Origin: a virus
Virus record (IMG/VR): IMGVR_UViG_3300045988_167582
Strand: one strand, 5' to 3'
DNA: 64,000 nt
Shown: piece by piece, positions 1 to 33,154 of the stretch
Layout of the letters: every line of letters starts with the position of its first letter
Position numbering within the stretch: the stretch's first letter is position 1
Program-made: the position numbers and the translations under genes
Notes under the pieces: model-generated
What the model saw: only the letters and a program-made list of their open reading frames with translations
Databases searched by the model: none
Told to the model about the DNA's origin: nothing

Positions 1-489
1 GCATCCATCGGAAAGATGTGTTTTAATCTTTTGTACTTGCTGAAACAAGATGATGATAACGAATCAAAAGAAAGGGATTTCAAAAGAGAACCAATCAAAA
101 TATATGTAAACTCATATGGTGGAGAAGTGTATGATATGTGGGCTTTGATAGACATTATTGAGAAATCTAAAACACCAATTTATACATACTGTACTGGATA
201 CGCAATGAGTGCAGCATTTAAGATATTTTTAGCAGGGCATAAAAGATTTGGAACGAAACATTCAACATTTATGTATCATCAGATGAATTGTTATAGATAT
301 GGGAAATATCAGGATTTAGTAGAAGACAGAAAAGAAATGGATTTCCTTAATACTGCTAACGAACAATATGTCATTGAAAGAACCAAAATTCCGCAGGAAT
401 ACATAAATGAAATCAGAGAGAAAAAGAGAGATACATATTTTCACGCAGACGAAGCGTTAATGTTCGGAATCATTGACGAAATAATTTAA
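1..489 (+). CDS. ClpP-family serine protease, paralog 1 (5' end cut by window edge)
   Basis: Frame is open from nt 1. Motifs YVNSYGGEV, TGYAMSAAF (Ser), FMYHQMN (His) and RDTYFHADEALMFGIIDEI are present. Aligns with the second copy at 26694-27335. Confidence 0.75.
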   Translation, partial: ASIGKMCFNLLYLLKQDDDNESKERDFKREPIKIYVNSYGGEVYDMWALIDIIEKSKTPIYTYCTGYAMSAAFKIFLAGHKRFGTKHSTFMYHQMNCYRYGKYQDLVEDRKEMDFLNTANEQYVIERTKIPQEYINEIREKKRDTYFHADEALMFGIIDEII

Positions 490-494
490 GGTCA

Positions 495-881
495 TTAAAG
501 AGAGTCGCTACTATTTCCTTCGCGCCTGTTCCATAACTTTGCTACAAAATCGGCAGCAGATTCTTTGCCATCATAGTTACAATCTTGGGGATTGATTGAA
601 CCGTTATTACCAAAAGTCATCTGAGTGGTTCTGGCGCGGCAATTTTTGCACTCAATCCAGATAGCCCATTGAAAGTAGGCGCTTGTGTTTAGTTTTATTA
701 TGGCTGTGCCGTTACAGAATGGGCACGGCAATAGTTGTTTGACTTGGAGTTCCACGTAATACTTTCTTTCACAATAACATTTAAAAATATAATCTGCAGT
801 TAGTTGTGTAATATACGTAATAGTTAGGAGAAATACTTTTATGCTTGATATTATTTTGAAAAGCGGGAAGGATGATGACAA
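495..881 (-). CDS. lar: Lar-family restriction-alleviation-like zinc-ribbon protein (true start probably GTG near 755)
   Basis: LLPCPFCNG...ECKNCRAR...AKLWNRR matches the Lar signature (CPFCG, CxxC, WNRR). It is a lone minus-strand gene among plus-strand genes. Confidence 0.6.
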   Translation of the reverse strand: MSSSFPLFKIISSIKVFLLTITYITQLTADYIFKCYCERKYYVELQVKQLLPCPFCNGTAIIKLNTSAYFQWAIWIECKNCRARTTQMTFGNNGSINPQDCNYDGKESAADFVAKLWNRREGNSSDSL

Positions 882-1732
882 TTGAAGAGGCTGATAAGTC
901 TTTATTTGGAGAAATTATTATGAGCCACAAAATGAATTACATACCGTTTATAAGTTCTTATGACGATATACGAGCAGAGATGAATGACGACCTACAATAT
1001 AGACTGAAAAGCCGAACGTCAAAAACATCCCTTGGACGACCTCTGTATTATCGTATCAATATTCAGTTAATTACGACACAAGAATGCCCATTTCATTGCC
1101 CGTTTTGCTTAGAAAGACAACATCCGATGACAGGGGATAATAATTTTCCAGCTCAAATCGAAGCGCTCAAAAAGGTCTTAGGCGAACATCCGAACGCGCG
1201 ACTAACAATTACCGGCGGCGAGCCCGGGCTGTATCCGAAACATATTGAGGATGTGGTCACGGCGTATAAAGAAAGCGGCAACAACGTATTTTGCTCAATC
1301 AATACCGCAGGATATAGCACAGCCATAAACGATTTAGCTCACATAAATCTTTCACATAACGATTTTGTACATCAAAATCCCAATAAATTTCCGGGGTGTA
1401 CCGTTCAAACAGTCGCGGACAATCTGTCGGTTCGGTTTATTAAGGACTTTATGCGGATGAACGCTTATAGCTTTTCATTTCGATTTATGAGCGGCATGGA
1501 GAAAAAAGACTATCCAATAGACGTATGGAATGAATTGCAAAATGACGTAGAGATAGATGTAGGCACTTTTAGAATAGGAGATTTTTTCGTTTATTCGACG
1601 TTCAGCTATGCAGGCAAACGCGCTCGCATAACACTCGGTGATATGTGGCAGCAACAGCACAACGATTACCGTGACGGTTATTCTAATATCATCATTCATC
1701 CGAACGGTCATATTGCAACGAATTGGAGGTAA
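872..1732 (+). CDS. Radical SAM protein of unknown specificity (likely start ATG 920 after GGAGA)
   Basis: CPFHCPFC is a CX3CX2C cluster motif, followed by LTITGGEPGLYP (SAM-binding GGE motif). No SPASM or other accessory domain is seen. Confidence 0.7.
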   Translation: MMTIEEADKSLFGEIIMSHKMNYIPFISSYDDIRAEMNDDLQYRLKSRTSKTSLGRPLYYRINIQLITTQECPFHCPFCLERQHPMTGDNNFPAQIEALKKVLGEHPNARLTITGGEPGLYPKHIEDVVTAYKESGNNVFCSINTAGYSTAINDLAHINLSHNDFVHQNPNKFPGCTVQTVADNLSVRFIKDFMRMNAYSFSFRFMSGMEKKDYPIDVWNELQNDVEIDVGTFRIGDFFVYSTFSYAGKRARITLGDMWQQQHNDYRDGYSNIIIHPNGHIATNWR

Positions 1733-1737
1733 AAATC

Positions 1738-2016
1738 ATGAATAGCGAAAAGGGGTTTATAGTTTATGAAGATAGCGGAACAAGTTTTAAAAATTGCAAA
1801 ACATCCGAAAAATGGTTCTCGACATATGATGACGCGATGGAATATGCGATAAAGATTGTACAAAGAAGAACAAGCGAGTTCAAAATTGGTATTGGTATTA
1901 ACAGCTCATTGACGGTATATGAAGGAGTAGAAGCAATTCTGCATAAACCGCATTTAGTTCCATGCGGTAAGGTCGCTTTTAGTTGGCATACCTACGCTCA
2001 GATATTCAGAGAATGA
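1738..2016 (+). CDS. hypothetical protein
   Basis: GGAGG 7 nt upstream of the ATG. Tightly packed with co-directional neighbours. Confidence 0.5.
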   Translation: MNSEKGFIVYEDSGTSFKNCKTSEKWFSTYDDAMEYAIKIVQRRTSEFKIGIGINSSLTVYEGVEAILHKPHLVPCGKVAFSWHTYAQIFRE

Positions 2017-2076
2017 GGCGAAAAGCTTGCATATTAGCTGAAAAATTATAGAGTACTACGAGGAGGTTAGATTTGT

Positions 2077-2361
2077 ATGGAGAAAGATAACAAAAGGATT
2101 GTCATAAACTTATCCAATGGCTTTAGGTTGGTAGCGGAGCAGAGCCAAGACCCAGAGTTTCGGAATGAGATTTATGTCGGGATTGAAACTGATGACGGCG
2201 TATATTATCAAGATTTGGCTGTAATAAGAAATGCGTATTCAATCAACGAAAATCTCCGGGTTGTCTGGAACCCAGATATATTGGAAGTCCTCGTTTATGC
2301 AGATAAAAACGATGAGGATTACACAAATAAGTATTCCGTTGGTATCAGGGAAGACACTTAA
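2077..2361 (+). CDS. hypothetical protein
   Basis: GAGGAGG SD upstream. No recognisable motif. Confidence 0.5.
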   Translation: MEKDNKRIVINLSNGFRLVAEQSQDPEFRNEIYVGIETDDGVYYQDLAVIRNAYSINENLRVVWNPDILEVLVYADKNDEDYTNKYSVGIREDT

Positions 2362-2424
2362 ATAATTATGAGAGGTATTAAGGCGAGAAACCCAAGAGTG
2401 TATTGAAGAAACGAGGTATTGAAG

Positions 2425-2841
2425 ATGAGTGTATCTTATTGGATGTGTCAGGGTGTAGGTATCCGCACAAATAAATTATTACCATTTTTAAGCACATATA
2501 AATGTGTTCAGTTTATGAAAACACAGTTACCGGATGAAGATATTCAGGAAGACAAGTTTGATATTGATGACTATCTTTATGGCGAGCCTTTTGATAATCT
2601 TGCCGAGATGTTTACTGTTTGCGATAATACAGACTCATTAACATATGGCGATAATGGTGACGGCGAGTACTACTTTTATTATATGCCTACCTATCCGTGG
2701 GAGCGAACAGATAACGAACCGACAAGTATTGAGGAAGTACATAAACGTATTATTGATGCCGTTCTCTGTTTATGCGATATAACTGAAGAACAGGTTAACG
2801 CATTGATTGATGACGATATTTATGATTTGGGGTGTGGCTAA
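2425..2841 (+). CDS. hypothetical acidic protein
   Basis: ATG preceded by ACGAGGT. D/E-rich sequence. Confidence 0.45.
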   Translation: MSVSYWMCQGVGIRTNKLLPFLSTYKCVQFMKTQLPDEDIQEDKFDIDDYLYGEPFDNLAEMFTVCDNTDSLTYGDNGDGEYYFYYMPTYPWERTDNEPTSIEEVHKRIIDAVLCLCDITEEQVNALIDDDIYDLGCG

Positions 2842-2845
2842 CAAT

Positions 2846-3130
2846 ATGATTACAAATGTAGCTGACGCGTTAGCTCCCTTTTTCTCCGGCGACAAACAGT
2901 TGGACGAGGCAATTGCAGATGTTTGCAAATTGTTTCTCAAAACGTTTGAGGACGAAACCTTTATGTGTAAAGGATGTGGGAAAATCATATTTCCGAAAGT
3001 TACAGTGAATGAGCACGGAATTTTTATTGAAAGCGGTCGTGCTGAGATTAGAGGCGGCAAAGAAAATTACTGCATCGAAAGAGATATATGTGAAGAATGT
3101 GTCAAGAGAGTAAGTGTAATTAGGTGGTGA
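2846..3130 (+). CDS. hypothetical zinc-ribbon protein
   Basis: CKGCG...CEEC cysteine pairs. Starts 5 nt after the previous stop. Confidence 0.45.
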   Translation: MITNVADALAPFFSGDKQLDEAIADVCKLFLKTFEDETFMCKGCGKIIFPKVTVNEHGIFIESGRAEIRGGKENYCIERDICEECVKRVSVIRW

Positions 3131-3195
3131 CATATATGGTCAGTGAAAAGGACTTTATGATTTTTGTAGTTATGGGAACATAAAAGGAGAAAGAA

Positions 3196-3753
3196 ATGAG
3201 ACGAATTAAAACTATAAAAGTAAAGATAGCTACGAAGCCAAATATACATATTGGAGACCACTTTGTTTATAAAGATATTGAATGGATATGTTTAGACATC
3301 ATTAACGGCAACTGCCTTGCAATCACTGCAAAAGTATGGAAGGAACTTCCGTTTAATGTTGGTAACCACAACAACTGGGAGAAGTCATCCTTACGTACAA
3401 TGTTGAATTATATGTTTCTTGACAATCTTTATAAAGGACACCTTGTAATGCAGACATCTGACATGATAGCAGATAACGGAGACAAACAGTACGGCTCTTG
3501 TGAAGATTATGTAACGATACTGTCTTGCGACCAGTATCGTAAATATAGAGACCTTGTGCCGAACTACCCTGAATGTATGTGGACATTAACTCCGTGGAGC
3601 TGTTTCAGCGGCACCGGTTATGTTCGCTTTGTCCGTCCGACGGGTAACATTGATGACGGCAGTGCTTGCCTCTGTTACGGAGTCGCCCCTGTGGTTTTGT
3701 TTTCGTTTGAAATACTTAAGTCACTTAGGTGTTTAAAAAACCAAATCAATTAG
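3196..3753 (+). CDS. hypothetical protein, DUF6273-like
   Basis: AAGGAGA SD. NNWEKSSLRTMLNYMFLDNL resembles the N-W-x-S-LR-x-LN motif of that family, from memory. Confidence 0.45.
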   Translation: MRRIKTIKVKIATKPNIHIGDHFVYKDIEWICLDIINGNCLAITAKVWKELPFNVGNHNNWEKSSLRTMLNYMFLDNLYKGHLVMQTSDMIADNGDKQYGSCEDYVTILSCDQYRKYRDLVPNYPECMWTLTPWSCFSGTGYVRFVRPTGNIDDGSACLCYGVAPVVLFSFEILKSLRCLKNQIN

Positions 3754-3912
3754 GAAAGTAGTTGCAGATGAAACATAAAGTAGAGTTAGTGCATAACTTA
3801 ATGTATAAAGGTTGTGAGCCACATTGGCATTGTACACAGTGTGATATTTACATACCAATTCATTGCTATAGTAAAAAAGAAATAGAAAATATGAATTGTG
3901 AGGGGAATAGGA

Positions 3913-4203
3913 ATGACAAATGAGAAGCTTACAGATGAAGAAGTGCTAAAAGGCTTGAATGAATTAAGTCAATGTGCAGGCTTAAAGATACACGTAATAC
4001 AAATACTTAAGGGAGCAATTGACCTTCTCAATTGTCAAAAGGCAAAGATTATAAAATTAGAATATTACAATGAAGATTTGCTTGCTGAAGTCAGAAAATT
4101 GAAGGGTTCTACAATAGTTAGTAACATTGTAGAACATCAGAGAATTAAAAGCGAAACAGAAGCTGAAGCATACAAAGAACTTATAGACATATTGTTGAAG
4201 TAG
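3913..4203 (+). CDS. coiled-coil protein, paralog A
   Basis: KLTDEEVLKGLNELSQCAGLKI... is duplicated at 4603-4908. Confidence 0.5.
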   Translation: MTNEKLTDEEVLKGLNELSQCAGLKIHVIQILKGAIDLLNCQKAKIIKLEYYNEDLLAEVRKLKGSTIVSNIVEHQRIKSETEAEAYKELIDILLK

Positions 4204-4433
4204 CATAAAAGGAGAATAAACAAAATGGAAGAGTATATTAGAGAAATTAAACAAATTGCAACTAAATACACAGAAAATCGATATGATGGATATTCACAGA
4301 TTATGAGAGTCTGTGATGCTATGAGAGAACAACAGAAATACTGTTTAGGGTATATGTCTAAAGATGAAATAACATCACCTCAGTTTGATTAGACTTAAAA
4401 TAAATTTCTTGATAAAACTGGAGGTAATTAAGA

Positions 4434-4625
4434 ATGACAAACTATGAACAAATTAAGAATATGAGTATTGAAGAAATGTCAGACTATTTTAACGAAATAT
4501 TTGATTGTCGTAATTGTCCAAATGATAGGTTTTTATGTGAAGGTAACGGCTATGTATGCACAAAGTATATTAAGCAATGGCTTGAAAGTGAGGCTAAACA
4601 AAATGCCGAAAGTAATAAAAAATAA
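4434..4625 (+). CDS. small Cys-containing hypothetical protein
   Basis: GGAGG SD. CRNCPNDRFLCEGNGYVC cysteine cluster. Confidence 0.5.
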   Translation: MTNYEQIKNMSIEEMSDYFNEIFDCRNCPNDRFLCEGNGYVCTKYIKQWLESEAKQNAESNKK

Positions 4626-4908
4626 AAAGCTTACAGATGAAAAAGTAATAAAAGGCTTGAATGAATTAAGTCAATACACAGGTTTGAAAATACAAATAGC
4701 ACAAACGCTTAAAGAAGCTATCGACCTTATCAAACGCCAAAAGTCGGAAATTGAGAGGTTGAAATCAGCTAACGATGAAAAATTTCGCCAATGGGATATG
4801 CTTGCAGAAAAGACAAAACAGCATTATGCTGATTTATACAACGAAGCAAAGGATATACTTAAAGCCGAAGCATACAAAGAGTTTGCAGAGGAGTTAAAAA
4901 CATATTAA
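4603..4908 (+). CDS. coiled-coil protein, paralog B
   Basis: KLTDEKVIKGLNELSQYTGLKI... parallels paralog A. The internal ATG 4603 after GTGAGG is preferred over the ORF-track start 4468. Confidence 0.5.
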   Translation: MPKVIKNKKLTDEKVIKGLNELSQYTGLKIQIAQTLKEAIDLIKRQKSEIERLKSANDEKFRQWDMLAEKTKQHYADLYNEAKDILKAEAYKEFAEELKTY

Positions 4909-5231
4909 GAAACATTCCAAAATGGAATGTTAAAAAATTAAACTTTAATAATGTCGGCTTTTCCTATGATGATGTGTTTTTTAGTATCGACAATCTCTTA
5001 AAAGAAATGTTAGGTGAAGAGTGATGAATGAAGGAAAATTAAAGTTTGGTATTGATATTACAAAAAATGATAGAGGAATTTGGTCTTTTGGTGTTTGTTT
5101 ATCACACTACGAAGATGAAACTTATATCTTTGTTAATTTTCATAGATATTCAATAACAATTGGTAAGTTTTATAAGTAAAGAAGTGACAACAATACGGAA
5201 TGAGAATTGAGGAATAAAGGAGAAAAATCTA

Positions 5232-5462
5232 ATGAAAAAGACAATGCTGAAAACAATCAGTAAGGGGGTCGCACAATGGTGTTCATATTATCGAGCCAAT
5301 CCTCATCGTTTCGCAAAGGACTATCTACATCTTAACTTACACTTGTTCCAAAAAATTCTTATTGTAATGATGAACTGGTCTACGACTACTGCATTCAGAG
5401 GTATGACAATGTTCATTTGGCTCACATGTCCGACTATCGGACAGGTACTTGTATGGCTTTAA
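5232..5462 (+). pseudogene. N-terminal fragment resembling a terminase large subunit
   Basis: YYRANPHRFAKDYLHLNLHLFQKILIVMMN resembles the conserved N-terminus of large terminases. The reading frame degenerates where Walker A (RG.GK) is expected, and it lies far from the packaging module. Confidence 0.4.
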
Positions 5463-5475
5463 CAGAGGTGCCCTT

Positions 5476-6498
5476 ATGACAATCGAAGAAATTAAGAACA
5501 TGGTTGAAAAAGAGAAATATGATTTTCTACGAACCAACCCGCATTTATCAGGAAGGTTGGTCTTCCTGACACTTGGCGGAAGTTACGCATACGGAACGAA
5601 CGTAGAAACCTCCGATGTAGATATTCGTGGCTGTGCTCTGAATCGCAAGAGCGATTTGCTTGGGTTATCTAATTTTGAACAGGTGGTTAATACCGAAACG
5701 GATACCACCGTTTATAGTTTTAATAAGTTGGTAAACTTACTGATTAACTGCAACCCGAATACAATTGAGCTCCTTGGATGTAAACCTGAACACTATTTCC
5801 TGCTTACCGATGTTGGCAGACAGATGATTGAAAATAGGGGGCTTTTCTTATCACAGAAGGCAGTTGCGTCTTTTGGCGGTTATGCTACGCAGCAGTTGCG
5901 TAGGCTCCAAAATACTCTCGCCAGAGATAGGGTTTCTCAAGCCCAGACGGAAGAACATATCAAAGGGGCGTTGGAACGTTCCATTAAATCCTTTGAGAAC
6001 AAGTTTACCTCGTTTGAAAATGGTGGAATTAAACTCTTGACCGACAAAAGCCAGCGTGACGACCTTGATTTGGAGGTTTACTGCAACATTCATATTGATA
6101 AATACCCGGCGAGGGAGTTTCAAACATTGCTTAACACACTTTCCTCTGTTATCGGGAACTACGAAAAGTTGAATCATAGAAATCATAAGAAAGACGATGC
6201 ACACCTTAATAAACACGCTATGCATCTTATCAGGTTGTACCTCATGTGCTTAGATATTCTCGAGAAACAAGAAATCTGTACCTATCGTGAAAATGATAGA
6301 GACTTTTTGCTGAGTATCAGAAATGGTGCGTTTCAGAATGAGGATGGAACATACAAACAGGAATTCTTTGAATTGGTTTCTGATTATGAAGCCCGTCTTC
6401 GGTATGCGAAAGAGAATACCAGTCTCCCAGAAAAGCCCAACATGAAACGAATCGAGGAATTTGTGGTGAGTGTAAATGAGAAATCAGTCAATCTCTAA
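5476..6498 (+). CDS. Pol-beta superfamily nucleotidyltransferase, RlaP-like (RNA-repair-associated family)
   Basis: LGGSYAYGTNVETSDVDIRG is the GS-x-YG-x(5)-SDxD motif. NCNPNTIELL is also present. AGAGGTG SD before ATG 5476. Confidence 0.6.
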   Translation: MTIEEIKNMVEKEKYDFLRTNPHLSGRLVFLTLGGSYAYGTNVETSDVDIRGCALNRKSDLLGLSNFEQVVNTETDTTVYSFNKLVNLLINCNPNTIELLGCKPEHYFLLTDVGRQMIENRGLFLSQKAVASFGGYATQQLRRLQNTLARDRVSQAQTEEHIKGALERSIKSFENKFTSFENGGIKLLTDKSQRDDLDLEVYCNIHIDKYPAREFQTLLNTLSSVIGNYEKLNHRNHKKDDAHLNKHAMHLIRLYLMCLDILEKQEICTYRENDRDFLLSIRNGAFQNEDGTYKQEFFELVSDYEARLRYAKENTSLPEKPNMKRIEEFVVSVNEKSVNL

Positions 6499-7840
6499 AA
6501 TCAATATGCCGGTCGGCGCCAAGAGAATCATTGAGAACCTGACAAAACATGGTTTTGAAGCGTATGTGGTCGGAGGGTGTGTTAGAGATAGTTTGCTCGG
6601 CTATTCTCCAAAGGACTGGGATATTTGCACCTCTGCAACTCCTGAAGTTATCAAAGAACTGCATAACCGCACGATTGATACTGGACTAAAGCATGGGACA
6701 GTAAGTGTAGTCGAAAGCGACGGGATTTACGAGGTTACAACATTCAGAGTGGATGGGGTGTACAGCGATAATCGAAGACCGGATACGGTTGAATTTGTGA
6801 CAGACCTGAAAATGGATTTATCCAGACGGGATTTCACCATCAATGCGATGGCATATAACGATGAAGCTGGAATAATCGACTATTACGGCGGGCTTTCGGA
6901 TTTGGCAGAGCACAAAATAAAGTGTGTCGGCAGCGCCGGTGACAGATTTGATGAGGACGCGCTGCGAATTTTACGGGCAATTCGTTTTTCGTCTGTATAT
7001 GGTTTCTCAGTCGAGCACGATACATCAAAAGCCATTCACGATAAGGCGGCGCTTCTCCAGAACATTGCGAGTGAACGAATCCGGAGTGAGCTGTGTAAAA
7101 CAATTGTATTCGGGCAGAGAACAGCGGATGTTCTCTTGGAATATTCCGATGTGGTGTCAATAATAATCCCGGAGATTGAACCCTGTATCGGATTTGTTCA
7201 GAACAACAGATTCCACAAGTACGATGTGTATGAACACATGGTACGAGCGATGGAGGCATACGCAGGTCATGACTTGTCGGTAAAATTTGCTCTGCTTATC
7301 CATGACATCGGAAAGCCGCTGTGCTATACCGAGGATGAAAACGGAGGTCATTTTTATGGTCACTCCGTCCCGTCGCACGATATTGCAGAACAAGTGGTAG
7401 ACAGGTTGAAATTCGATAACAAAACTAAAGATGAGGTTCTTGAACTGGTTTTATATCATGATTCCGCGATAGAGCCTACTGCCAAGACCGTGAAGCGGTG
7501 GCTCAACAGAATTGGAGCAGAAAGACTCTCTCAGCTCTTGGATGTCAAAATGGCTGATATCGCAGCCCACGCAGATAATACACAGACGGAAAGAATCAAT
7601 CAATATCTATCTGTGAGGGAAATTGCTAAAGAGGTTATTGCATCAGAACAATGTTTCCAGCTCAAGGATTTGGAGATTAACGGGCGAGATGTCATGTCTC
7701 TCGGTGTGGAGGAAGGCAGACAGGTCGGCAGAATTCTGAATTATTTGCTCGAAGGCGTAATTGCCGGTGATATTGATAACACATACGGAGCGCTGCTTAA
7801 ATATGCTCGTGAGATAATTGAAAAGGAAGTGACGAAATGA
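6476..7840 (+). CDS. cca: tRNA nucleotidyltransferase (CCA-adding enzyme) with HD domain
   Basis: VVGGCVRDSLLG, DWDICT, RRDFTINAMAY and LIHDIGKP (HD) motifs. Overlaps the upstream gene by 23 nt. Confidence 0.85.
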   Translation: MRNQSISKINMPVGAKRIIENLTKHGFEAYVVGGCVRDSLLGYSPKDWDICTSATPEVIKELHNRTIDTGLKHGTVSVVESDGIYEVTTFRVDGVYSDNRRPDTVEFVTDLKMDLSRRDFTINAMAYNDEAGIIDYYGGLSDLAEHKIKCVGSAGDRFDEDALRILRAIRFSSVYGFSVEHDTSKAIHDKAALLQNIASERIRSELCKTIVFGQRTADVLLEYSDVVSIIIPEIEPCIGFVQNNRFHKYDVYEHMVRAMEAYAGHDLSVKFALLIHDIGKPLCYTEDENGGHFYGHSVPSHDIAEQVVDRLKFDNKTKDEVLELVLYHDSAIEPTAKTVKRWLNRIGAERLSQLLDVKMADIAAHADNTQTERINQYLSVREIAKEVIASEQCFQLKDLEINGRDVMSLGVEEGRQVGRILNYLLEGVIAGDIDNTYGALLKYAREIIEKEVTK

Positions 7841-8400
7841 AATTTTACATTTCAGATACCCATTTTGGTCATCAGAACATCATTCGATATGATAATCGCC
7901 CGTTTAGTACGGCAGATGAAATGGACGAGGTTCTCATTGACCGATGGAATGATGTAGTGTCTGACGAGGATACGGTGTATGTGCTTGGTGATTTTAGCTG
8001 GCATAGAGAAGAGAAAACACTCAAAATCCTCGATAGTCTTTCAGGACACAAGGTTCTGATTAAGGGAAATCACGATAGGGTTTCGCCCAAAATTGCGAGG
8101 AGATTTGATAAGGTTTGCGACTACCTTGAGATTACGGACGGGAAAGAAAGAGTTGTGATGAGCCATTACCCGATGCCGTTTTGGAACGGGCAGTTTAGGA
8201 ACACGGTTCATCTATATGGTCATGTGCATAACTCACATCAGTGGAATGTTTGCGAGAGTTTGCGAAAAGAACTCAAGGCACTGCAGGATATTCCAATGAG
8301 AATGGTTAATGTCGGTTGCATGATGGAATGGATGGACTATACACCTCAGCCTCTCCATGTTTTAACCGATTCTTTAGGGCAGGAGGGTGAGGCGCTATGA
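7837..8400 (+). CDS. calcineurin-type metallophosphoesterase
   Basis: ISDTHFGH, VLGDFSW, KGNHD and YGHVHN motifs. ATGA start/stop overlap with cca. Confidence 0.75.
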   Translation: MKFYISDTHFGHQNIIRYDNRPFSTADEMDEVLIDRWNDVVSDEDTVYVLGDFSWHREEKTLKILDSLSGHKVLIKGNHDRVSPKIARRFDKVCDYLEITDGKERVVMSHYPMPFWNGQFRNTVHLYGHVHNSHQWNVCESLRKELKALQDIPMRMVNVGCMMEWMDYTPQPLHVLTDSLGQEGEAL

Positions 8401-8588
8401 GCAAAATCAACACGAACAAGGAAGTTGAAAAAGCAATTCTAAACGCTGCGGATATCCTGAAAAATAATGCCCTTGCATTAACACATGATATCGATTTGCA
8501 GAAGGTGTCTGGAATCAGTATTTGGATTCGGTTTGACGCCGATAGTATTCCTACGCTTGAAATTGAAAAGGATTACTTTTTGTATTGA
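8397..8588 (+). CDS. hypothetical protein
   Basis: ATGA overlap with the phosphoesterase gene. GGTGAGG SD. Confidence 0.45.
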   Translation: MSKINTNKEVEKAILNAADILKNNALALTHDIDLQKVSGISIWIRFDADSIPTLEIEKDYFLY

Positions 8589-8690
8589 TGTTGAAAAACC
8601 AGAAGCATTGTATTTGGTTGAGAGGCAATCAGATACAGTGCAATTGATGAGGCACTATAGTGTTACATCCTATAAGGGGGTTAGAATACT

Positions 8691-9899
8691 GTGATTTATC
8701 TTGATAATGCTGCAACAACTCAGATTACTCCTGCTGTGGTGGCAGCGATGTTGCCATACTTAACGGATAGCTACGGGAACGCAGGGTCTTTATACAAACT
8801 TGGACGAGATTCTGCTCTCGCTATAGAAAAAGCACGAGCGCAGGTTGCCGGTCTGATGGGTGCAAAGCCGGAACAGATTATTTTCACCTCCGGCGGAAGT
8901 GAGTCAAACAGCTTGGTATTTCATGGACTACGGGATTATCTGCCAAGAATCGGGAAGAAAACGGTGGTGGTTTCTGCTACCGAACATGACTCAGTTCTGA
9001 AGGCAGCAAATGCTCTTCGTATTCCGTTGTGTCGCAACACGGAAATGAATATAAAAGACGACTTTGATATTCGTTTTTTACGTGTTGACCCGTATGGCGA
9101 AGTCGTGCTTGACGACCTTGAAGAAATGCTTGTTTCCTCAGATGTCGGGCTGGTTTCTGTGATGTATGTGAACAATGAAACGGGCGCAATCAATAATGTA
9201 AGAGAAATCGGACGCCTTTGCAAAGAACATGGCGTGCTTTTTCATACCGACTGCGTTCAAGCTGCTGGATGCCATAAAATCGATGTGCGAGAAATGAAGT
9301 GTGATTTCGCCTCAATCTCGTCTCACAAAATTCATGGTTGCAAGGGCGTGGGCGCCTTGTTTGTCAAAGACAAGAATATCCTGTCTCCGATTATCTATGG
9401 AGGCACCGAACAAGAATATGGGTTGCGCGGAGGGACAGAAAATGTTGCAGGAATAGTCGGTTTTGGCGTGGCTGCGGAGATTGCTGCCACGCGGCAAGCG
9501 GAGACCTTAAGCACCGTTACATACTATAAAAAACGATTCTTCCAAAAGGTTTCCGATACACTCCGGAATAATCAAATGCGAGATATTCTAAAAGTCAACG
9601 GGCATTTGTCAAATGCCGGGAAGACACTGAATATCCGGTTTGACGATGTTGACGGTGAGACATTGGTTCTTATGTTGGATTCAAAGGGAATCTGCATTTC
9701 ATCCGGTTCTGCTTGCAGGAGCCACGAATCAGAACCAAGTCATGTCCTAAGAGCAATGGGATTAGAACCGGATGAGGCGAGAGACTCTGTACGAATCTCG
9801 TTTTCAGATTTTAACAGCATCTCTGAAATCGATAACGCTGCAGAAACCATAGCAGAGGTAGTAGTTTTCCTGCGGAAAGGCTTACAAAATGGAAATTAA
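8691..9899 (+). CDS. cysteine desulfurase (NifS/IscS class V aminotransferase)
   Basis: LDNAATT, SSHKIHGCKG (PLP lysine) and SSGSACRS (catalytic Cys) motifs. GTG start after AAGGGGG. Confidence 0.9.
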   Translation: MIYLDNAATTQITPAVVAAMLPYLTDSYGNAGSLYKLGRDSALAIEKARAQVAGLMGAKPEQIIFTSGGSESNSLVFHGLRDYLPRIGKKTVVVSATEHDSVLKAANALRIPLCRNTEMNIKDDFDIRFLRVDPYGEVVLDDLEEMLVSSDVGLVSVMYVNNETGAINNVREIGRLCKEHGVLFHTDCVQAAGCHKIDVREMKCDFASISSHKIHGCKGVGALFVKDKNILSPIIYGGTEQEYGLRGGTENVAGIVGFGVAAEIAATRQAETLSTVTYYKKRFFQKVSDTLRNNQMRDILKVNGHLSNAGKTLNIRFDDVDGETLVLMLDSKGICISSGSACRSHESEPSHVLRAMGLEPDEARDSVRISFSDFNSISEIDNAAETIAEVVVFLRKGLQNGN

Positions 9900-10101
9900 G
9901 TATCCAAAAGGCGAAATGGTATGGGTATCGTACTTCAATTCGCAAAAAGAAACGGTTTGCATATTGACAAGCAAACCGTCACGAGATTTCTACTACTTAT
10001 ATGAGGTTCTTTCGTCAGGAGAAGCGAAAAGGCTTGGAAAAGCTCGTTCTCCTACAGAACTTGAGGAAAAGTTTGATGTAAAGGCGCGGATGAGCCACTA
10101 A
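9889..10101 (+). CDS. hypothetical protein
   Basis: Overlaps the desulfurase 3' end. Weak SD. Confidence 0.35.
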   Translation: MEIKYPKGEMVWVSYFNSQKETVCILTSKPSRDFYYLYEVLSSGEAKRLGKARSPTELEEKFDVKARMSH

Positions 10102-10163
10102 TCATCTTGAAAATTTCGTAAAAATATGATATAATAAAATGTCAAGAAGGGTGTATGTGAAGC

Positions 10164-10568
10164 ATGAGTAAAAACGAAGATTACGGTTTTGATACAGAAT
10201 TTATGACCGATGAAGAGGTTGAACAGATGCTCGACTCTATCGTCACATCCGTTGGCGATGTGGCTTCTGACGATAATAGCAGGACTTCGGTTGTGAATGT
10301 ATATAAAATGCAGCAAGTGTTGTATGTATATAAAGTCATGAAATATCTGGCAAAAGGGCAAAAAGGCGTAAAGGTTGACTGCAAGCTTCATACTCCGTAT
10401 AACAGCATGGGGTATGTGAGTGTGGTTGGGAAGAAACTTGTTTTTCGCAAACCGGAATGGTTTATGAAAGCGGTCGAATTATCGAATAATTTCGAGGTGT
10501 ATCCTAAAACAAACGGAACCGTCCAGATGAATTTCACGTTTCATGGGCTTACGACACCGATTGAATAA
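10164..10568 (+). CDS. hypothetical protein
   Basis: ORF in a co-directional block. The C-terminal half resembles the next ORF. Confidence 0.45.
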   Translation: MSKNEDYGFDTEFMTDEEVEQMLDSIVTSVGDVASDDNSRTSVVNVYKMQQVLYVYKVMKYLAKGQKGVKVDCKLHTPYNSMGYVSVVGKKLVFRKPEWFMKAVELSNNFEVYPKTNGTVQMNFTFHGLTTPIE

Positions 10569-10582
10569 AGGAGGATAATGCT

Positions 10583-10939
10583 ATGGGTAGTTTTGTAAAA
10601 TGTTTTGACACGGTTTCAATGGTCGTAGATGAGGCAACATCTCAGTTCGCACCGATTTGGAAAGAAAATAAAGAAAGCAAAAGAATTTTAGCTCAGTATT
10701 GTGGGGTTATTGATTCTTTGTCAAATGAGTTCGGCGGAGAATCGTTCGAGGTTGATGTAGATGATGTTAAGATGACTATCACTATCAGATTAGAGTGTCA
10801 GGATATGACGCTGGAATCTCAAAAGCATAAGTACTATGACATTGCACAGAGAGCGTTGTCTTTTGGATTTTCGGTATCAGAGTCAGGGAATTTAGTCGTC
10901 GAATTTGTGTTCCCGAGTATTTGGGAAAGAGCTGTTTGA
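10583..10939 (+). CDS. hypothetical protein
   Basis: AAGGAGG SD. Confidence 0.5.
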   Translation: MGSFVKCFDTVSMVVDEATSQFAPIWKENKESKRILAQYCGVIDSLSNEFGGESFEVDVDDVKMTITIRLECQDMTLESQKHKYYDIAQRALSFGFSVSESGNLVVEFVFPSIWERAV

Positions 10940-10952
10940 TTGGAGGAATCCA

Positions 10953-11183
10953 ATGAACAATAAACGACGCGATGTTCTTAAACGTGCTTTGAATTTACTC
11001 GAAAATGCGTCAGAACTCGTCAATCGGGTTCTTGATGAAGAACAGGACAGTCTTGATAACACACCGGAAAATTTGATGGAAAGCGACCAGTATCAAAAAA
11101 GAGAGACTGCCGTCGATAGACTTGAAGAGGCTATTGAACAGATAGAGGAAGCGAAGAATAGCGTAGAGGCAGCGGCAGAATAG
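10953..11183 (+). CDS. hypothetical helical acidic protein
   Basis: GGAGGA SD before ATG 10953. DEEQDSLDNTPENL motif. Confidence 0.5.
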   Translation: MNNKRRDVLKRALNLLENASELVNRVLDEEQDSLDNTPENLMESDQYQKRETAVDRLEEAIEQIEEAKNSVEAAAE

Positions 11184-11195
11184 GGGGAGGTTATT

Positions 11196-11912
11196 ATGTT
11201 TGAGTTTTTTATTGCTCTGTTTGGAGGCTCTTTTTTGGGAGCTAAACTTCATTCAGAGAAGAAGCAACTGAAAGAATTCGATAAGAAACAAGCTGTCATA
11301 AAAGATGCTTACGACTCCGGCGTACAAGCTTGGGAAGCATCTGTAGTTGACAGAAATCTCGAGGACGAATTAACAGAGCGTCTGAATAGCGATATAGAAT
11401 TCAAACAGGCTGCGATTCAGGAAATGCAAGAAGAGCTTGGTGATGACATCCCAGAAACATTGGGTTATCCTACTCCTCGTTCGGCTGTGCTTAGATATTT
11501 GCTTGCAAAGAAAGGAAAATTACTTTCCGCCGATGCTTCGCAATTTGGGATTCGAGTTGTTGCGCCTCAGCCTCACGACAGCAAAGACAAGGCGCGATGG
11601 AAGCAGGAAGTAAAATTTGTTCGTTGGATGGGCTCTAAAATTAAAGATTTTGTTCCTGATGCAACTTTAATGTTTAAGAGCGCTGGGGGTTTTGACAGCA
11701 AACCTCTTTCGGCTAACGCCATCTCTGACTATGACGGCGGAGATTTCTTCTGGGACGTATCTTCTTATGTAACCTACGGCAGTAAGTTTGAACCGACGCA
11801 GGAACAGAAAGAAAAAGAAGCAAGTCTGTCTAACGCCTGTGGGATTTTTGCAGGAATTCTTATTTTGATTTTTGCCTTTGTTATCGCCGTTCTTGCTATT
11901 AAAAGCATTTAA
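11196..11912 (+). CDS. hypothetical protein with C-terminal membrane anchor
   Basis: GGGGGAGG SD. The C-terminus GIFAGILILIFAFVIAVLAI is hydrophobic. Confidence 0.5.
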   Translation: MFEFFIALFGGSFLGAKLHSEKKQLKEFDKKQAVIKDAYDSGVQAWEASVVDRNLEDELTERLNSDIEFKQAAIQEMQEELGDDIPETLGYPTPRSAVLRYLLAKKGKLLSADASQFGIRVVAPQPHDSKDKARWKQEVKFVRWMGSKIKDFVPDATLMFKSAGGFDSKPLSANAISDYDGGDFFWDVSSYVTYGSKFEPTQEQKEKEASLSNACGIFAGILILIFAFVIAVLAIKSI

Positions 11913-12712
11913 TCAAATAAATAATCCGGCAAATCCACTTTGTACCCCAGTAGCACTCTGCCATAGCAGCGGACTTCCGATACGCTATCAGCGCTAACGA
12001 AAACATTCGTGTTTTTTAGCCTCGGGTTTGCAGAAACAAGAGTCAGATTCCTCTTATCATCAACATAGTATTGCTTGCAATATATTGCACCATCAACACA
12101 AAAAATACCAACATCTCCGACAGATAAGTCGCAGTCCTTTTTGACGTAGACAGTGTCGCCATCGTGAATATAGGGTGACATACTGTTGCCTTGAATTCCA
12201 ACAGCAAAGTCTGCGTCGGCAGGGACTGTATCGTCCACGAGAATCATTTCAAAATCATCACCGTCCAAAGGCACGGAATAACCAGCAGCTGACGGCGTTG
12301 AGTATCTCGGGATATATCTGCTCGGGGATTTTCCCTTTTCAAGTGAGACAATCGGCTCGGTGATATTGGAAACTTTAGTTTCGGATTCAACACGGGATTT
12401 TTCCAAGAGGCAGAGGGTTTCTACAGCCTTACGACCATGACGGTCAAGCATTCTATAATTAGACAACAGTATGGATTCTTGCTTGTTAAGCAAAATCGGT
12501 TCCTTTTTAGGTTCGCCACTTATGCCGAGAAGGTAGTCTGTCGAAACACCAAATAACGAAGCCAGAGCAATAATAGCTTTCATGGAAGGGGCTTTAGTAC
12601 CGCTTTCCCAACATCTTACACTTACTTCGGACACACCAAGCCTTTGACTTACATATTTTTGAGTAAGATTTTTTTCAAATCGCAATGAACGAATTCTACT
12701 GCTGAGTTCCAT
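11909..12712 (-). CDS. CI/LexA-type repressor (XRE HTH + S24 self-cleaving peptidase)
   Basis: N-terminal HTH (LTQKYVSQRLGVSEVSVRCWESG), a candidate Ala-Gly cleavage site (PSAAGYS), GNSMSP (Ser) and YCKQY (Lys). GGAGGA SD. Confidence 0.85.
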   Translation of the reverse strand: MELSSRIRSLRFEKNLTQKYVSQRLGVSEVSVRCWESGTKAPSMKAIIALASLFGVSTDYLLGISGEPKKEPILLNKQESILLSNYRMLDRHGRKAVETLCLLEKSRVESETKVSNITEPIVSLEKGKSPSRYIPRYSTPSAAGYSVPLDGDDFEMILVDDTVPADADFAVGIQGNSMSPYIHDGDTVYVKKDCDLSVGDVGIFCVDGAIYCKQYYVDDKRNLTLVSANPRLKNTNVFVSADSVSEVRCYGRVLLGYKVDLPDYLFD

Positions 12713-13004: not shown

Positions 13005-13033
13005 AGTATACCACAAAGATTTGAAAAAATCAA
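13005..13033 (-). promoter_or_regulatory. promoter of the candidate sRNA
   Basis: On the minus strand: TTGATT, 17 nt spacer, TGgTATACT (extended -10). Confidence 0.45.
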
Positions 13034-13050
13034 TGGAGGAGTATCTACAA

Positions 13051-13365
13051 ATGCAGAAAATATCTCTTAGCGAGTTCAGCAAGTGCTGTTCCGCACAATC
13101 ATACACAAGATTCATTTTATCTACGGATAATCAAGCTTGGGATAAAATTGATAACACGATGCGTATGGAATTTGAATTTAACTCTATTAGTGTCAGTTAT
13201 AATCCAAATATAATTAGGTTGAGTCTCGGCAGTAATTATATGAGTTTTGAAAGAGTAAAATACATAAAAATCGAGGAATCTTCGATTCTCGGTATGGTAT
13301 ATACTATCGTTTGCGGTAATCCAATAGTCAAAAGCGATGATTTTTATACCATCATAGCCCGCTGA
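13051..13365 (+). CDS. hypothetical first early protein
   Basis: GGAGGAG SD 8 nt before ATG 13051, so the ORF-track TTG 13021 is unlikely. No clear HTH. Confidence 0.5.
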   Translation: MQKISLSEFSKCCSAQSYTRFILSTDNQAWDKIDNTMRMEFEFNSISVSYNPNIIRLSLGSNYMSFERVKYIKIEESSILGMVYTIVCGNPIVKSDDFYTIIAR

Positions 13366-13395
13366 ATAATTTTTGAAGTAAATTTTATAATTATC

Positions 13396-13424
13396 TTGAC
13401 AAAGAAGATTTTTTGTGCTATACT
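13396..13424 (+). promoter_or_regulatory. near-consensus promoter in front of the MazF-like gene
   Basis: TTGACA, 17 nt spacer, TGcTATACT (extended -10). Confidence 0.6.
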
Positions 13425-13442
13425 GTTGCCGTAAGATGAACT

Positions 13443-13895
13443 ATGGCGAAAGGATGTGGCACCTTGAGTCTCCCTACTATCAGCGGCAGACAGCCCCAAA
13501 TCGGGGATATTTACTTAATGCACTTCGGAGGAAGCGGAAATGAACAAAAAGGCTGGAGACCCGGATTGGTATTTCAAAACAATCTGGGAAATCGGTATAG
13601 CCCTAATATAATAGCATTACCCTTAACGAGTGCAATTAAAAAATCAAACCAACCAACCCATGTATTTATTCCGTCAAGAGACACTGGGCTTGTAAAAGAC
13701 AGTATGGTTCTTTGCGAAAATCCTGAATGTATGTCAAAGGAGAGAATCGGAAACTACCTTACGACTTTACCGAAAGAATACATGAGCAAAATTGCGATTG
13801 CTAATTTATTGGCTTCATCAGCGTTGTCTTATATCGACCCAGATATACTCCTTGCAGTTTGGCAGAAGGCGTTAGCATTAAATGCGATAGCCTAA
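13443..13895 (+). CDS. MazF/PemK-family endoribonuclease-like toxin with a ~40-aa C-terminal extension
   Basis: GDIYLMHFGGSGNEQKGWRPGLVFQNN...IIALPLTS...THVFIP...SMVLCENPECMSKERI follows the PemK/MazF pattern. Confidence 0.7.
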   Translation: MAKGCGTLSLPTISGRQPQIGDIYLMHFGGSGNEQKGWRPGLVFQNNLGNRYSPNIIALPLTSAIKKSNQPTHVFIPSRDTGLVKDSMVLCENPECMSKERIGNYLTTLPKEYMSKIAIANLLASSALSYIDPDILLAVWQKALALNAIA

Positions 13896-14941: not shown

Positions 14942-15016
14942 TGAGGTGTAGCCAAGCGGTAAGGCACAGGACTTTGACTCCTGCATTCGTCAGTTCAAAT
15001 CTGACCATCTCAGCCA
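14942..15016 (+). tRNA. tRNA-Gln (anticodon UUG) with genomically encoded CCA
   Basis: Hand-folded cloverleaf. Acceptor TGAGGTG/CATCTCA, anticodon arm CAGGA-CTTTGAC-TCCTG (TTG at 14974-14976), T arm GTCAG-TTCAAAT-CTGAC, discriminator G, then CCA. Confidence 0.85.
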
Positions 15017-15056: not shown

Positions 15057-15617
15057 ATGGATAACAAAGAACGGTTTGTTTCTTTGTGCAGTACAGTTAA
15101 CCGAGAGGGTATGGCAGAGTTAATGAAGTGGCTTGATGATAATGACTTCTACACTTGCCCTGCAAGCAGCAGATTTCATGGCGCGTATCCCGGCGGGTTA
15201 TTAGAACACTCGCTGAATGTTTATGATGAGTTAAAACGACTTTTGAGTGTGTATCCGGAAATCAAGGTTTCCGAAGATAGTGTAGTCGTCGCAGCTCTGT
15301 TTCACGACCTCTGTAAGGTGAATATGTATGCTACGGAGAAAAGAAATCGAAAAAATGAAAACGGTCAATGGGAAAGCTATGACGCATACACGATTAAGGA
15401 GAAGTTTTGCTATGGCGGACATGGCAGCAAGTCGATTTTTCTCGTCCAGCACTTTATTAAGCTTACTCCAGAAGAAGCTGTGGCAATCAATGCTCATATG
15501 AGTTGCTGGGATGGTAACACAAGTGTCGGAAACGCATACGAGCAATTCCCGTTTGCATGGTTACTTCATGTAGCTGACGAGTCAGCGACCTATATCAAGG
15601 AGGGAAAGGTAAACTAA
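15057..15617 (+). CDS. HD-domain phosphohydrolase
   Basis: SSRFHGAYPGGLLEHS and AALFHDLCK motifs. Confidence 0.7.
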   Translation: MDNKERFVSLCSTVNREGMAELMKWLDDNDFYTCPASSRFHGAYPGGLLEHSLNVYDELKRLLSVYPEIKVSEDSVVVAALFHDLCKVNMYATEKRNRKNENGQWESYDAYTIKEKFCYGGHGSKSIFLVQHFIKLTPEEAVAINAHMSCWDGNTSVGNAYEQFPFAWLLHVADESATYIKEGKVN

Positions 15618-26171: not shown

Positions 26172-26710
26172 AGGTAATCTTAATTTCTGGCAAAGCACAA
26201 AACGGCAAAGACACGGTAGCAGCATATATGAGAGAAAAACTGACAGAAGATAAACACCGTGTTTTGATTACACATTATGCGGACTTGCTCAAATATATCT
26301 GTCGCAGTTATTTTGGCTGGGACGGAGTGAAGGACGAGAAGGGACGCAAAATGTTACAGTACGTTGGTACTGATGTTATTAGGAAAGAAAACCCGAGCCT
26401 ATGGGTGGATTTCGTGGCACTTATGCTGAAATACTTCCACGAAAACTGGGACTATGTTATTATCCCTGACTGCCGGTTTCCTAATGAGGTATCCACAATG
26501 CGAGATAGTGGGTTTGACACCTTATATCTGCGCATTATCAGAAGCAATTTTGCCAGCCCTCTTACAGAAGAACAGCAGAAACATCCGTCAGAGACAGCCC
26601 TTGACGGGTACGACGCTGACTACTGTATTGATAACAACGGAACGCTTTCGGAGTTAAAAACGAAAGTCGATAATTGGATTAAGGAGAGTTTATATGAGCA
26701 CGAATCATAA
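26168..26710 (+). CDS. deoxynucleoside monophosphate kinase
   Basis: P-loop ISGKAQNGKDT. Overall resembles phage dNMP kinases. TTG start overlapping the upstream stop. Confidence 0.6.
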   Translation: MKVILISGKAQNGKDTVAAYMREKLTEDKHRVLITHYADLLKYICRSYFGWDGVKDEKGRKMLQYVGTDVIRKENPSLWVDFVALMLKYFHENWDYVIIPDCRFPNEVSTMRDSGFDTLYLRIIRSNFASPLTEEQQKHPSETALDGYDADYCIDNNGTLSELKTKVDNWIKESLYEHES

Positions 26711-32725: not shown

Positions 32726-33154
32726 ATGCGCAGGGTATTTATTATGCGTAAAGACCTGAATATGTCCGTCGGTAAGCTCTTAACTCAAACCTACCACTGC
32801 GCAGAAGCATATTGGACGCACGGGCTTAGAGCAAACGCAAAGCCGATAGACGACGCCAGAGGATATATTGCCAGCATCAAAATTCCCAAGGATGTGTATG
32901 AGCAGTATGTGTGCGGTATGCTCGTGAAGACCGTATGTGAGGCAAGAAATAAGAACCACCTACTTAAAGCCAAAACAATTGCAGAGAAAATAGGGCTTGT
33001 AGAGGGCGTAGATTTTGGGCTCATATACGATAAATGCTTAACGGAACTTGTTCCCGAGGAAGAGGACGGTACAACGCTGACGGGAATTTGGTTTGCACCG
33101 CTTGATGACGAGCGGGCTCACTCAATCAGCAAGAAATATCAATTATATAAATAA
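32726..33154 (+). CDS. pth2: peptidyl-tRNA hydrolase, PTH2 family
   Basis: VFIMRKDLNMSVGKLLTQTYHCA and KTVCEA...LIYDKCLTELVP...TLTGIWFAP parallel the archaeal/eukaryotic Pth2 pattern (VvR.DL.M.kGK.aAQ..Ha ... DaG.T.l...T.l.i.P). Confidence 0.65.
   Translation: MRRVFIMRKDLNMSVGKLLTQTYHCAEAYWTHGLRANAKPIDDARGYIASIKIPKDVYEQYVCGMLVKTVCEARNKNHLLKAKTIAEKIGLVEGVDFGLIYDKCLTELVPEEEDGTTLTGIWFAPLDDERAHSISKKYQLYK

Follow-up and report, generated by a model that had tools for sequence, protein, structure and literature searches.

Known RNA-Repair Systems and the Locus under Study

RlaP, the CCA-adding enzyme, Thg1, PTH2, KptA and Macro were listed by Iyer et al. in 2021 among the components of phage RNA repair (PMC7824862). 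In the catalogued toolkits, found mostly in jumbo phages, RlaP stands beside RNA ligases, and the distribution of the one mirrors that of the other. Here, we describe a locus at positions 5232–8588 of the IMG/VR virus record IMGVR_UViG_3300045988_167582, a stretch of 64,000 nucleotides referred to below as the window. The two main genes of the locus encode an RlaP-family nucleotidyltransferase (NTase) and a class II CCA-adding enzyme (hereafter, the CCA enzyme). This pair of genes is a conserved unit within a shuffling island of genes for RNA-end enzymes. The plus strand of the locus contains five open reading frames (ORFs), which are given below together with the next two genes.

5232–5462, + strand: orf76, 76 aa, upstream of the NTase gene
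5476–6498, + strand: RlaP-family Pol-beta NTase, 340 aa (ATG at 5476, stop at 6498; PF10127)
6476–7840, + strand: class II CCA-adding enzyme with a C-terminal HD domain, 454 aa (NF009814, Pfam domains)
7837–8400, + strand: small calcineurin-like metallophosphoesterase (MPE), 187 aa (Metallophos_2, phrog_547)
8397–8588, + strand: orf63, a 63-aa orphan ORF coupled translationally to the MPE (no family match)
8691–9899, + strand: cysteine desulfurase, 402 aa (Aminotran_5)
9889–10101, + strand: orf70, a conserved ORF of 70 aa that recurs 3′ of the CCA gene in other lineages

The locus resembles the phage RNA-repair toolkits (PMC7824862), which also include phosphoesterases and RNA ligases, in its enzyme families and in the proposed purpose of restoring RNA ends after an attack by the host on the translation apparatus. 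It differs from them in belonging to a temperate phage (64-kb window, 104.5-kb contig), in that no ligase was found and in the coupling of the NTase to the CCA enzyme. The purified Pseudomonas RlaP enzymes (PfRlaP and PaRlaP) add 1–2 nucleoside monophosphates (NMP) to an RNA 3′-OH and refuse 3′-phosphate ends; RlaP has been proposed to replace nucleotides lost to ‘smart’ ribotoxins, and NrdC.11 of phage T4 is a member of the family (bioRxiv 10.64898/2025.12.29.696909). The phage enzyme shares with the product of the Pseudomonas RtcB-RlaP-RtcA operon the PF10127 domain, the catalytic Asp triad and the expected addition of 1–2 NMP. However, the phage NTase is only distantly similar, over no more than the N-terminal half of the model. 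Its partner is the CCA enzyme, not RtcB or RtcA. An RNA ligase neighbour, to which RlaP owes its name, was not found for the NTase in the window.

The T4 proteins Pnkp and Rnl1, acting against PrrC, follow the same phage-encoded logic of healing and restoring damaged tRNA. In contrast to them, the locus lacks a kinase, a ligase and a Pnkp-type phosphatase and would operate by adding nucleotides to a free end rather than by sealing. As neither kinase nor ligase was found in the window, the locus does not belong to the T4 type of heal-and-seal systems. A multifunctional CCA enzyme of the E. coli type, carrying an HD domain, was reportedly described by Yakunin et al. in 2004. The phage CCA enzyme is similar to this type (NF008137) in the combination of a class II head with an HD domain and in the intact H/HD/D motifs, but its head and neck are of the Bacillus type (NF009814), and the C-terminus adds a tRNA_NucTran2_2 domain.

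Thg1-like proteins (TLPs) repair tRNA 5′ ends (PMC3061083). TLP genes are present in the islands of 9 of the 28 NTase lineages defined below, and one of them lies just upstream of the window, hence outside both the window and the 5232–8588 locus. Their recurrence in the island suggests that the two strands of the acceptor stem are repaired in a complementary manner. Kits that combine RlaP, the CCA enzyme and Thg1 are already known from phages; the new feature is a conserved RlaP→CCA coupling without a ligase. The literature covered, which excludes Burroughs and Aravind (2016), makes no mention of such a ligase-independent coupling. We consider the chances to be about even that the phage carries an island for the repair of tRNA or other RNA ends, and that the locus is its 3′-end branch, rebuilding damaged tRNA tails.

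Conservation of the NTase–CCA Gene Pair

The comparison covered 80 IMG/VR loci collected with the NTase as a seed and 78 collected with the CCA enzyme, along with 27 loci from genomes and a few phages from GenBank. All ORFs of the collected loci were clustered; the NTases of 90 loci formed 28 lineages (clusters of 90% identity), and the genes located within 6 kb of the NTase were counted as its neighbours. The CCA gene lies directly downstream of the NTase gene in 19 of the 28 lineages. In the CCA-seeded search, the NTase abuts the CCA enzyme in 64 of 78 loci, representing 14 of 15 lineages. The gap between the two genes is usually from −19 to +20 nt, although two lineages include loci where it is 970 nt. 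On phage contigs of 95–160 kb, which share no other neighbour with the window within 6 kb, the pair is kept at 45–58% (NTase) and 36–50% (CCA enzyme) identity. The pair is also present in 13 of 27 prophage or metagenome-assembled genome (MAG) loci of Clostridia; one carrier, Oscillospiraceae bacterium 44-5 (L194), is a cultured strain. No cultured phage carrying the adjacent pair was found. Clostridioides phages AR1086-1 (NTase, KptA) and pCD1602_4 (CCA enzyme) have one gene of the pair each, with the partner not adjacent, and RlaP of Bacillus phages 0524phi7-1 and G has no adjoining CCA gene. A megablast search of GenBank phages with the 4.7-kb region gave no match.

The other neighbours of the NTase, with the number of lineages in which they were found, are listed below.

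Cysteine desulfurase: 9/28
Thg1 family: 9/28
orf70: 8/28
GP88: 7/28
Macro: 6/28
MPE: 6/28, in variable order
Rnl-type RNA ligase with an OB domain: 4/28
Isochorismatase: 3/28

The commonest order elsewhere is MPE-CysDes-NTase-CCA-orf70 (CysDes, cysteine desulfurase). The fullest island (L022, 1195–10793) reads OB-fold + PF09414 RNA ligase (Rnl)-GP88-Thg1-NTase-CCA-Macro-CysDes. On some contigs of 100–160 kb, the place of the NTase upstream of the CCA gene is taken by a gene for the RNA 2′-phosphotransferase KptA/Tpt1 (loci L129, L145, L146, L151, L152, L154, L157, L158 and L161, ~3.8–4.4 kb each). The recurring members of the island, i.e., Thg1, Macro, RNA ligase and KptA/Tpt1, are RNA-end enzymes as judged by their families, which speaks for a repair function.

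Since the pair persists while the other neighbours change, it is the NTase→CCA pair that represents the conserved unit, and the four-gene ‘operon’ of NTase, CCA enzyme, MPE and orf63, which the original prediction treated as the module, is one local arrangement of the island. The MPE accompanies the NTase in just six lineages and in a different order, and orf63 is confined to near-identical phages. The cysteine desulfurase and the Thg1-like gene, both omitted from that prediction, travel with the NTase at least as often as the MPE does.

These counts bear on the main rival to 3′-end repair, namely the canonical role of RlaP. According to it, the enzyme fills breaks in the anticodon loop prior to ligation by host RtcB or another ligase, and the CCA enzyme, with a repair or maturation activity independent of it, is merely co-located and co-regulated. 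The family is named for its association with ligases, PfRlaP favours the anticodon-loop end, the distribution of RlaP in jumbo phages mirrors that of ligases (PMC7824862), and an Rnl-type ligase is encoded in the island of four related lineages. However, the NTase is found with the CCA enzyme in 19 lineages and with a ligase in 4, and the two genes abut or overlap and persist where every other neighbour has changed. In addition, RNA ligase, polynucleotide kinase, KptA and Macro were not found in the 64-kb window by a search with PHROGs, precomputed Pfam tables and tblastn with a related ligase, the half with the structural genes (about 36–64 kb, − strand) being partly covered by domain assignments. 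We regard the ligase-assisting role as unlikely. The original prediction also noted that neither ligase nor kinase is present and took this as an argument for 3′-end repair; the argument holds for this phage but does not extend to its close relatives, which carry an RNA ligase in the island.

Gene Overlaps and Regulatory Sequences

The junctions were read directly. The NTase and CCA genes overlap by 23 nt, with GGTGA located 7 nt 5′ of the CCA ATG (6476). The MPE gene starts in an ATGA overlap (4 nt) with the CCA gene and has the ribosome-binding site (RBS) AAGGAAG; orf63 starts in an ATGA overlap (4 nt) with the MPE gene and has the strong RBS AGGAGGG. A plausible Shine–Dalgarno sequence is found at each start of the locus, and the RBS of orf76 is good. 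Thus, the ORF table and the junctions agree with the three overlaps previously assigned to the four genes, and the same genes (340, 454, 187 and 63 aa) were predicted on the identical contig by an independent gene caller. The span proposed for them, beginning at 5232, has to be shortened: the four genes are real, but 5232–5462 is a fifth ORF outside the four, with no overlap with the NTase gene when ATG 5476 is used. The gap between orf63 and the cysteine desulfurase gene is 102 nt.

Short start/stop overlaps are frequent along the whole phage genome, according to the gene tables, so the overlaps of the NTase, CCA, MPE and orf63 genes are not special in themselves. The feature exceeding chance is the NTase→CCA adjacency kept across lineages. 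Promoter and terminator scans were performed for positions 4300–12000 and for the corresponding junction of L085, a 442-kb contig with a 99.9% identical prophage. The counts of sites were no higher than in shuffled sequences and, hence, discrete operon boundaries are not demonstrated. Apart from tRNA-Gln elsewhere in the window, Rfam searches, run at both the gathering and the E-value threshold, gave only chance-level matches, as did a search for repeats in the 4900–10300 region; the module contains no riboswitch, T-box or structured element.

The RlaP-Type Nucleotidyltransferase

The NTase matches Pfam family RlaP (PF10127) with a score of 63.2 bits at a cut-off of 23 (E = 4e-17, residues 23–146 of 340), and its full length matches phrog_388 (E = 4.8e-54). 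The GGS-YG-SDxD motif is invariant in 20 diverse homologues (35–76% identity); the invariant residues are G35, S36, Y39, G40, S46, D47, D49 and D76. The Pol-beta motif hG[GS]...D-x-D with a third carboxylate is represented by G35-S36, D47-x-D49 and D76. The family of the 5476–6498 product is therefore RlaP, as had been proposed from its GS-YG-SDxD motif. More than 7800 homologues of the NTase exist, and all among those listed bear the PF10127 tag. By analogy with the Pseudomonas enzymes, the NTase is predicted to add 1–2 nucleotides to RNA 3′-OH ends.

In the crystal structure of PfRlaP, a helical domain at the C-terminus is packed against the NTase domain. An AlphaFold2 (AF2) model of the phage NTase was built from a 33-sequence alignment. 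The C-terminal half is helical in this low-confidence model (mean pLDDT 68). A Foldseek search of the PDB with the model gave no match with E below 0.5, and no RlaP structure was found by sequence and profile searches of the PDB. Residues ~150–228 form an ~80-residue helix/beta-hairpin insertion typical of the gut-phage RlaP clade; RlaP of Bacillus phage 0524phi7-1 (262 aa) does not have it.

The CCA-Adding Enzyme

The product of the 6476–7840 gene contains the Pfam domains PolyA_pol, PolyA_pol_RNAbd, HD and tRNA_NucTran2_2. It scores 305.8 against the NCBIfam CCA equivalog NF009814 (cut-off 290), just 137.6 against NF008137 (cut-off 451) and far below the cut-offs of the PcnB and A-adding models. 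The head and neck align strongly (E = 1.8e-57) to two CCA enzymes of the Bacillus type with known structures, 6ibp and 1miv. All the class II head motifs, i.e., VGGCVRD, DWDI, RRDFTINA and EDALRILRAIRF, are present; in the form of GGxVRD, DxD, RRDFTINA and EDALRxLRAxRF, they occur in 95% or more of 104 homologues. The HD domain (PF01966) scores 30.1 at a cut-off of 22, and its metal ligands, located in HKYDVYEH, IHDIGK, GHFYGH and YHD, are kept in at least 80% of the homologues. Pfam, NF009814 and the motifs all agree with the earlier assignment to class II CCA-adding enzymes and with the presence of an HD domain. That the enzyme adds CCA rather than CC, A or poly(A) is suggested by the equivalog match and by its similarity to Bacillus-type enzymes.

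Two further features of the window should be considered together with the CCA enzyme.

14942–15016, + strand: tRNA-Gln(UUG) with encoded G73-CCA (ARAGORN; Rfam, 64.8 bits; sequence ...CTCAG-CCA)
32726–33154, + strand: PTH2, peptidyl-tRNA hydrolase 2 (PF01981 in precomputed tables)

Maturation of the phage tRNA was considered as a function of the CCA enzyme and rejected: the CCA of tRNA-Gln is already present in its gene, so this tRNA does not need the enzyme. PTH2 matches the NCBIfam Pth2 model below the cut-off (E = 4.9e-9). Its gene adjoins that of dUTPase and is dispersed from the repair cluster.

A housekeeping role would be a more general one: additional CCA adding and tailing could keep the tRNA pool charged during rapid phage translation or the normal turnover of 3′ ends. 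CCA enzymes and other genes of tRNA metabolism are common in large phages with no demonstrated link to defence. Nevertheless, the CCA is already encoded in the phage tRNA, Bacillota hosts have an essential CCA enzyme of their own, and many enzymes of the island (Thg1-like, ligase, KptA, Macro, PTH2) are specific to damage, which makes the housekeeping explanation quite improbable.

The Metallophosphoesterase, the Cysteine Desulfurase and Small ORFs

The MPE scores 32.9 against Metallophos_2 at a cut-off of 27, with no match to PF00149, and belongs to phrog_547 (E = 7.9e-48). The motifs DTH, GD, GNHD, H and GHVH can be read in the translation of 7837–8400, so the metal-binding set is complete and the original assignment to calcineurin-type phosphoesterases is correct. 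The only match in NCBIfam is PdeM, below the threshold. The only solved relative is Aquifex protein aq_1665 (1xm7, E = 4.9e-20), whose function is unknown. No other protein, including Pnkp and lambda phosphatase, was found by a phmmer search of all PDB chains with E up to 1. Consequently, the parallel drawn in the original prediction with Clostridium thermocellum Pnkp is not reflected in any detectable sequence relation, and the MPE is of the aq_1665/phrog_547 type instead.

Homologues of the MPE are present in 1805 phage records, from which seven annotated phage examples were sampled for gene context. Three of the seven, in a Vequintavirus, Pakpunavirus JG004 and Listeria phage LMSP-25, are located within ~0.5–1.1 kb of an RNA ligase gene; LMSP-25 also carries an RtcB-type ligase. 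One homologue is found among DNA replication and exonuclease genes, one with other phosphatases and two amid hypothetical genes. The MPE is a plausible candidate for a 3′-end healing enzyme, as judged by the RNA ligase neighbourhoods, and represents the weakest link of the module.

The cysteine desulfurase belongs to group I (NifS/IscS/DndA-like; Aminotran_5, E = 5e-76), with the motifs SSHK and GSACRS seen in the sequence, and scores below every cut-off of the NifS, DndA and IscS models. It often occurs in the MPE-CysDes-NTase-CCA order. Its PADLOC matches are limited to generic DndA/SspA models, with no partner genes. DNA phosphorothioation, suggested by these matches, was rejected because no Dnd or Ssp partners were found by PADLOC or in the gene tables. 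None of the other possible partners, ThiI, MnmA, TtcA and IscU, was found either. One may guess at tRNA thiolation or Fe-S supply as the role of the enzyme.

The small ORFs differ in their distribution. No match to orf63 was found in Pfam, PHROG, NCBIfam or PADLOC, and it occurs only in phages whose neighbours are at least 95% identical. Likewise, orf76 is confined to near-identical phages, has no Pfam match and only a weak one to phrog_15503, and lies outside the conserved module. In contrast to them, orf70 recurs in other lineages, most commonly directly 3′ of the CCA gene, and has no family match in Pfam or PHROG.

These data are relevant to the suggestion that the genes do not form one module, and that the MPE and the desulfurase merely share a variable accessory region and have functions of their own. 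Such functions could be degradation of host DNA, hydrolysis of cyclic-nucleotide signals or Fe-S supply for the radical SAM protein and NrdG. The MPE is found with the NTase in 6/28 lineages and in variable order, many members of its family are encoded in other contexts and an enzyme of a related class, Gp48, attacks DNA; the phage radical SAM protein and NrdD/NrdG need Fe-S, and the accessory block is an insert known to vary. On the other hand, MPE-CysDes-NTase-CCA are contiguous in several lineages despite reordering, and homologues of the MPE adjoin RNA ligases in three unrelated phage groups. We find this explanation rather improbable.

Proposed Function of the Locus

The function proposed for the locus is the repair of RNA 3′ ends, and the conserved pairing of the RlaP NTase with the CCA enzyme, whose translationally coupled genes form the core, fits a shared job at such ends. 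The sequences establish the identities of the genes, the integrity of the catalytic motifs and the NTase–CCA linkage. Both transferases need a 3′-OH, and therefore an end-cleaning step is proposed. The HD domain, possibly with the MPE, would first strip 2′,3′-cyclic, 3′- or 3′-pyrophosphate groups, presumably the leftovers of nucleases or toxins, to yield a 3′-OH. The RlaP NTase would return 1–2 nucleotides, e.g., the discriminator N73, to the 3′-OH of RNA trimmed beyond CCA. The CCA enzyme would then rebuild CCA, and the tRNA could be charged again. The Thg1-like 3′-5′ polymerase encoded upstream of the window may do the equivalent job at 5′ ends, and PTH2, encoded elsewhere in the genome, may free peptidyl-tRNA. 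The substrate would be tRNA, the steps would follow in the above order, the phosphoesterase may take part, and the phage would benefit on encountering tRNA-targeting defence systems or toxins; a counter-defence role is what we infer for the locus.

Several observations weigh against 3′-end repair. In 9 of the 28 NTase lineages, there is no CCA gene beside the NTase, and one further lineage is mixed, its loci L006–L008 (95% NTase identity) lacking the CCA gene, which indicates that the NTase can work alone. As the island of relatives includes an RNA ligase, RlaP may still have a part in repair by ligation. The NTase covers the Pfam RlaP model only in its N-terminal half, and the AF2 model is poor, with a pTM of 0.59 and no structural match. 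When Pseudomonas RlaP was offered a tRNA mimic, it favoured the break in the anticodon loop rather than the 3′ half with its natural 3′ end (bioRxiv 10.64898/2025.12.29.696909). The contexts of the MPE family vary and include DNA replication genes, and Gp48, a mycobacteriophage metallophosphoesterase of a related class, damages host DNA (PMC12287305). Finally, the cysteine desulfurase is located inside the cluster but has no place in the repair model.

Inactivation of tRNA is now seen as a major theme of antiviral immunity. Phages are known to respond with spare tRNAs or by repairing the anticodon loop through ligation of the T4 type. The 3′ tail is attacked in several ways, including cleavage by Cas12a3, pyrophosphorylation by toxSAS, extension of the MenT type and acceptor cleavage of the CdiA type. 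The tail is universally conserved, and variant tRNAs cannot evade such an attack; to our knowledge, no phage counter to it has been described. The RlaP–CCA pair is a concrete and cheaply testable candidate for an answer to tail-cleaving immunity of the Cas12a3 kind. Cas12a3 cuts the tRNA 3′ tail 2–4 nt from the end, releasing NCCA with the discriminator base, and its discoverers stated that the viral means of resistance are unknown (PMC12851939).

A more specific version of the 3′-end repair reading is that RlaP→CCA is a dedicated pair rebuilding whole tRNA tails after an immune nuclease similar to Cas12a3 has removed the discriminator base together with CCA. We hold this version to be doubtful. 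If true, the pair would stand as the first countermeasure of a phage against the cleavage of tRNA tails, with RlaP restoring N73 and the CCA enzyme the rest, and, together with the Thg1-like enzyme, both strands of the acceptor stem would be repaired. A role in 3′-end repair would also be the second physiological role of the RlaP family (>10,000 proteins), beyond ligase-assisted repair. If the pair is only co-located, the locus is still a well-documented case of modular RNA-repair islands in phages of gut Clostridia.

Phage Genome Context

ENA contig ERZ1743992 NODE_25 (L084) matches the window with 100% identity. The phage is temperate and SPbeta-like, with Yom/Yon structural genes on the − strand, an S24/HTH repressor (11909–12712, − strand), and a tyrosine integrase with Xis at 34–35 kb. 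Its replication genes include those for Erf, an exonuclease, DnaB, a primase, a DnaE-type polymerase and NrdD/NrdG. It is a phage of gut Clostridia; related prophages occur in both MAGs and isolates, from Oscillospiraceae, Butyricicoccus, Lachnospiraceae and further Clostridia.

The + strand block ends with orf238 (11196–11912), which converges with the repressor gene in a 4-nt overlap (11909–11912). The repair block is thus bracketed by genes of the − strand; it may be transcribed from a separate promoter, and expression in lysogeny is possible. Next to the repressor, a PemK/MazF-like endoribonuclease toxin is encoded at 13443–13895, preceded by a 114-aa ORF that may be the antitoxin (13021–13895); this region is a candidate for a prophage toxin–antitoxin or exclusion system.

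The location of the block in a prophage accessory region beside this toxin and the repressor could point to an offensive or exclusion function, in which the NTase tags the RNAs of the host or of competitors by a MenT-like extension of tRNA 3′ ends and acts as a prophage toxin or defence factor. Toxins extending tRNA 3′ ends do exist among NTases, with MenT3 as an example (PMC11541572). However, the Pfam family of the NTase is RlaP and not MenT or AbiEii, and its pairing with CCA-rebuilding and Thg1-like repair enzymes points to restoration rather than damage. PADLOC found no defence system: the NTase, the CCA enzyme and the MPE gave only motif-level matches with E above 1e-5, which are no more than generic. 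We consider an offensive function very improbable.

The Thg1-family gene is located on the identical contig (L084, 3217–4068), 0.46–1.3 kb upstream of the first base of the window. A GP88/DUF5131-like gene (L084, 2598–3200) lies next to it, up to 1.9 kb upstream of the same base. Positions 1–5140 of the window and the upstream Thg1 block are absent from L085, where packaging-side genes abut window position 5141. The accessory block of ~9.6 kb, containing Thg1, ClpP, radical SAM and many small ORFs, is thus a variable insert. The radical SAM protein (872–1732) shows similarity to the viperin, NrdG and MoaA models only in the N-terminal CxxxCxxC region, with scores far under their cut-offs. The two ClpP-like protease genes of the window (16–489 and 26694–27335) are ~37% identical to each other. 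Directly after tRNA-Gln, an HD/HDIG phosphohydrolase (15057–15617, phrog_28876) is encoded, which is weakly similar to the 3′-5′ exoribonuclease YhaM.

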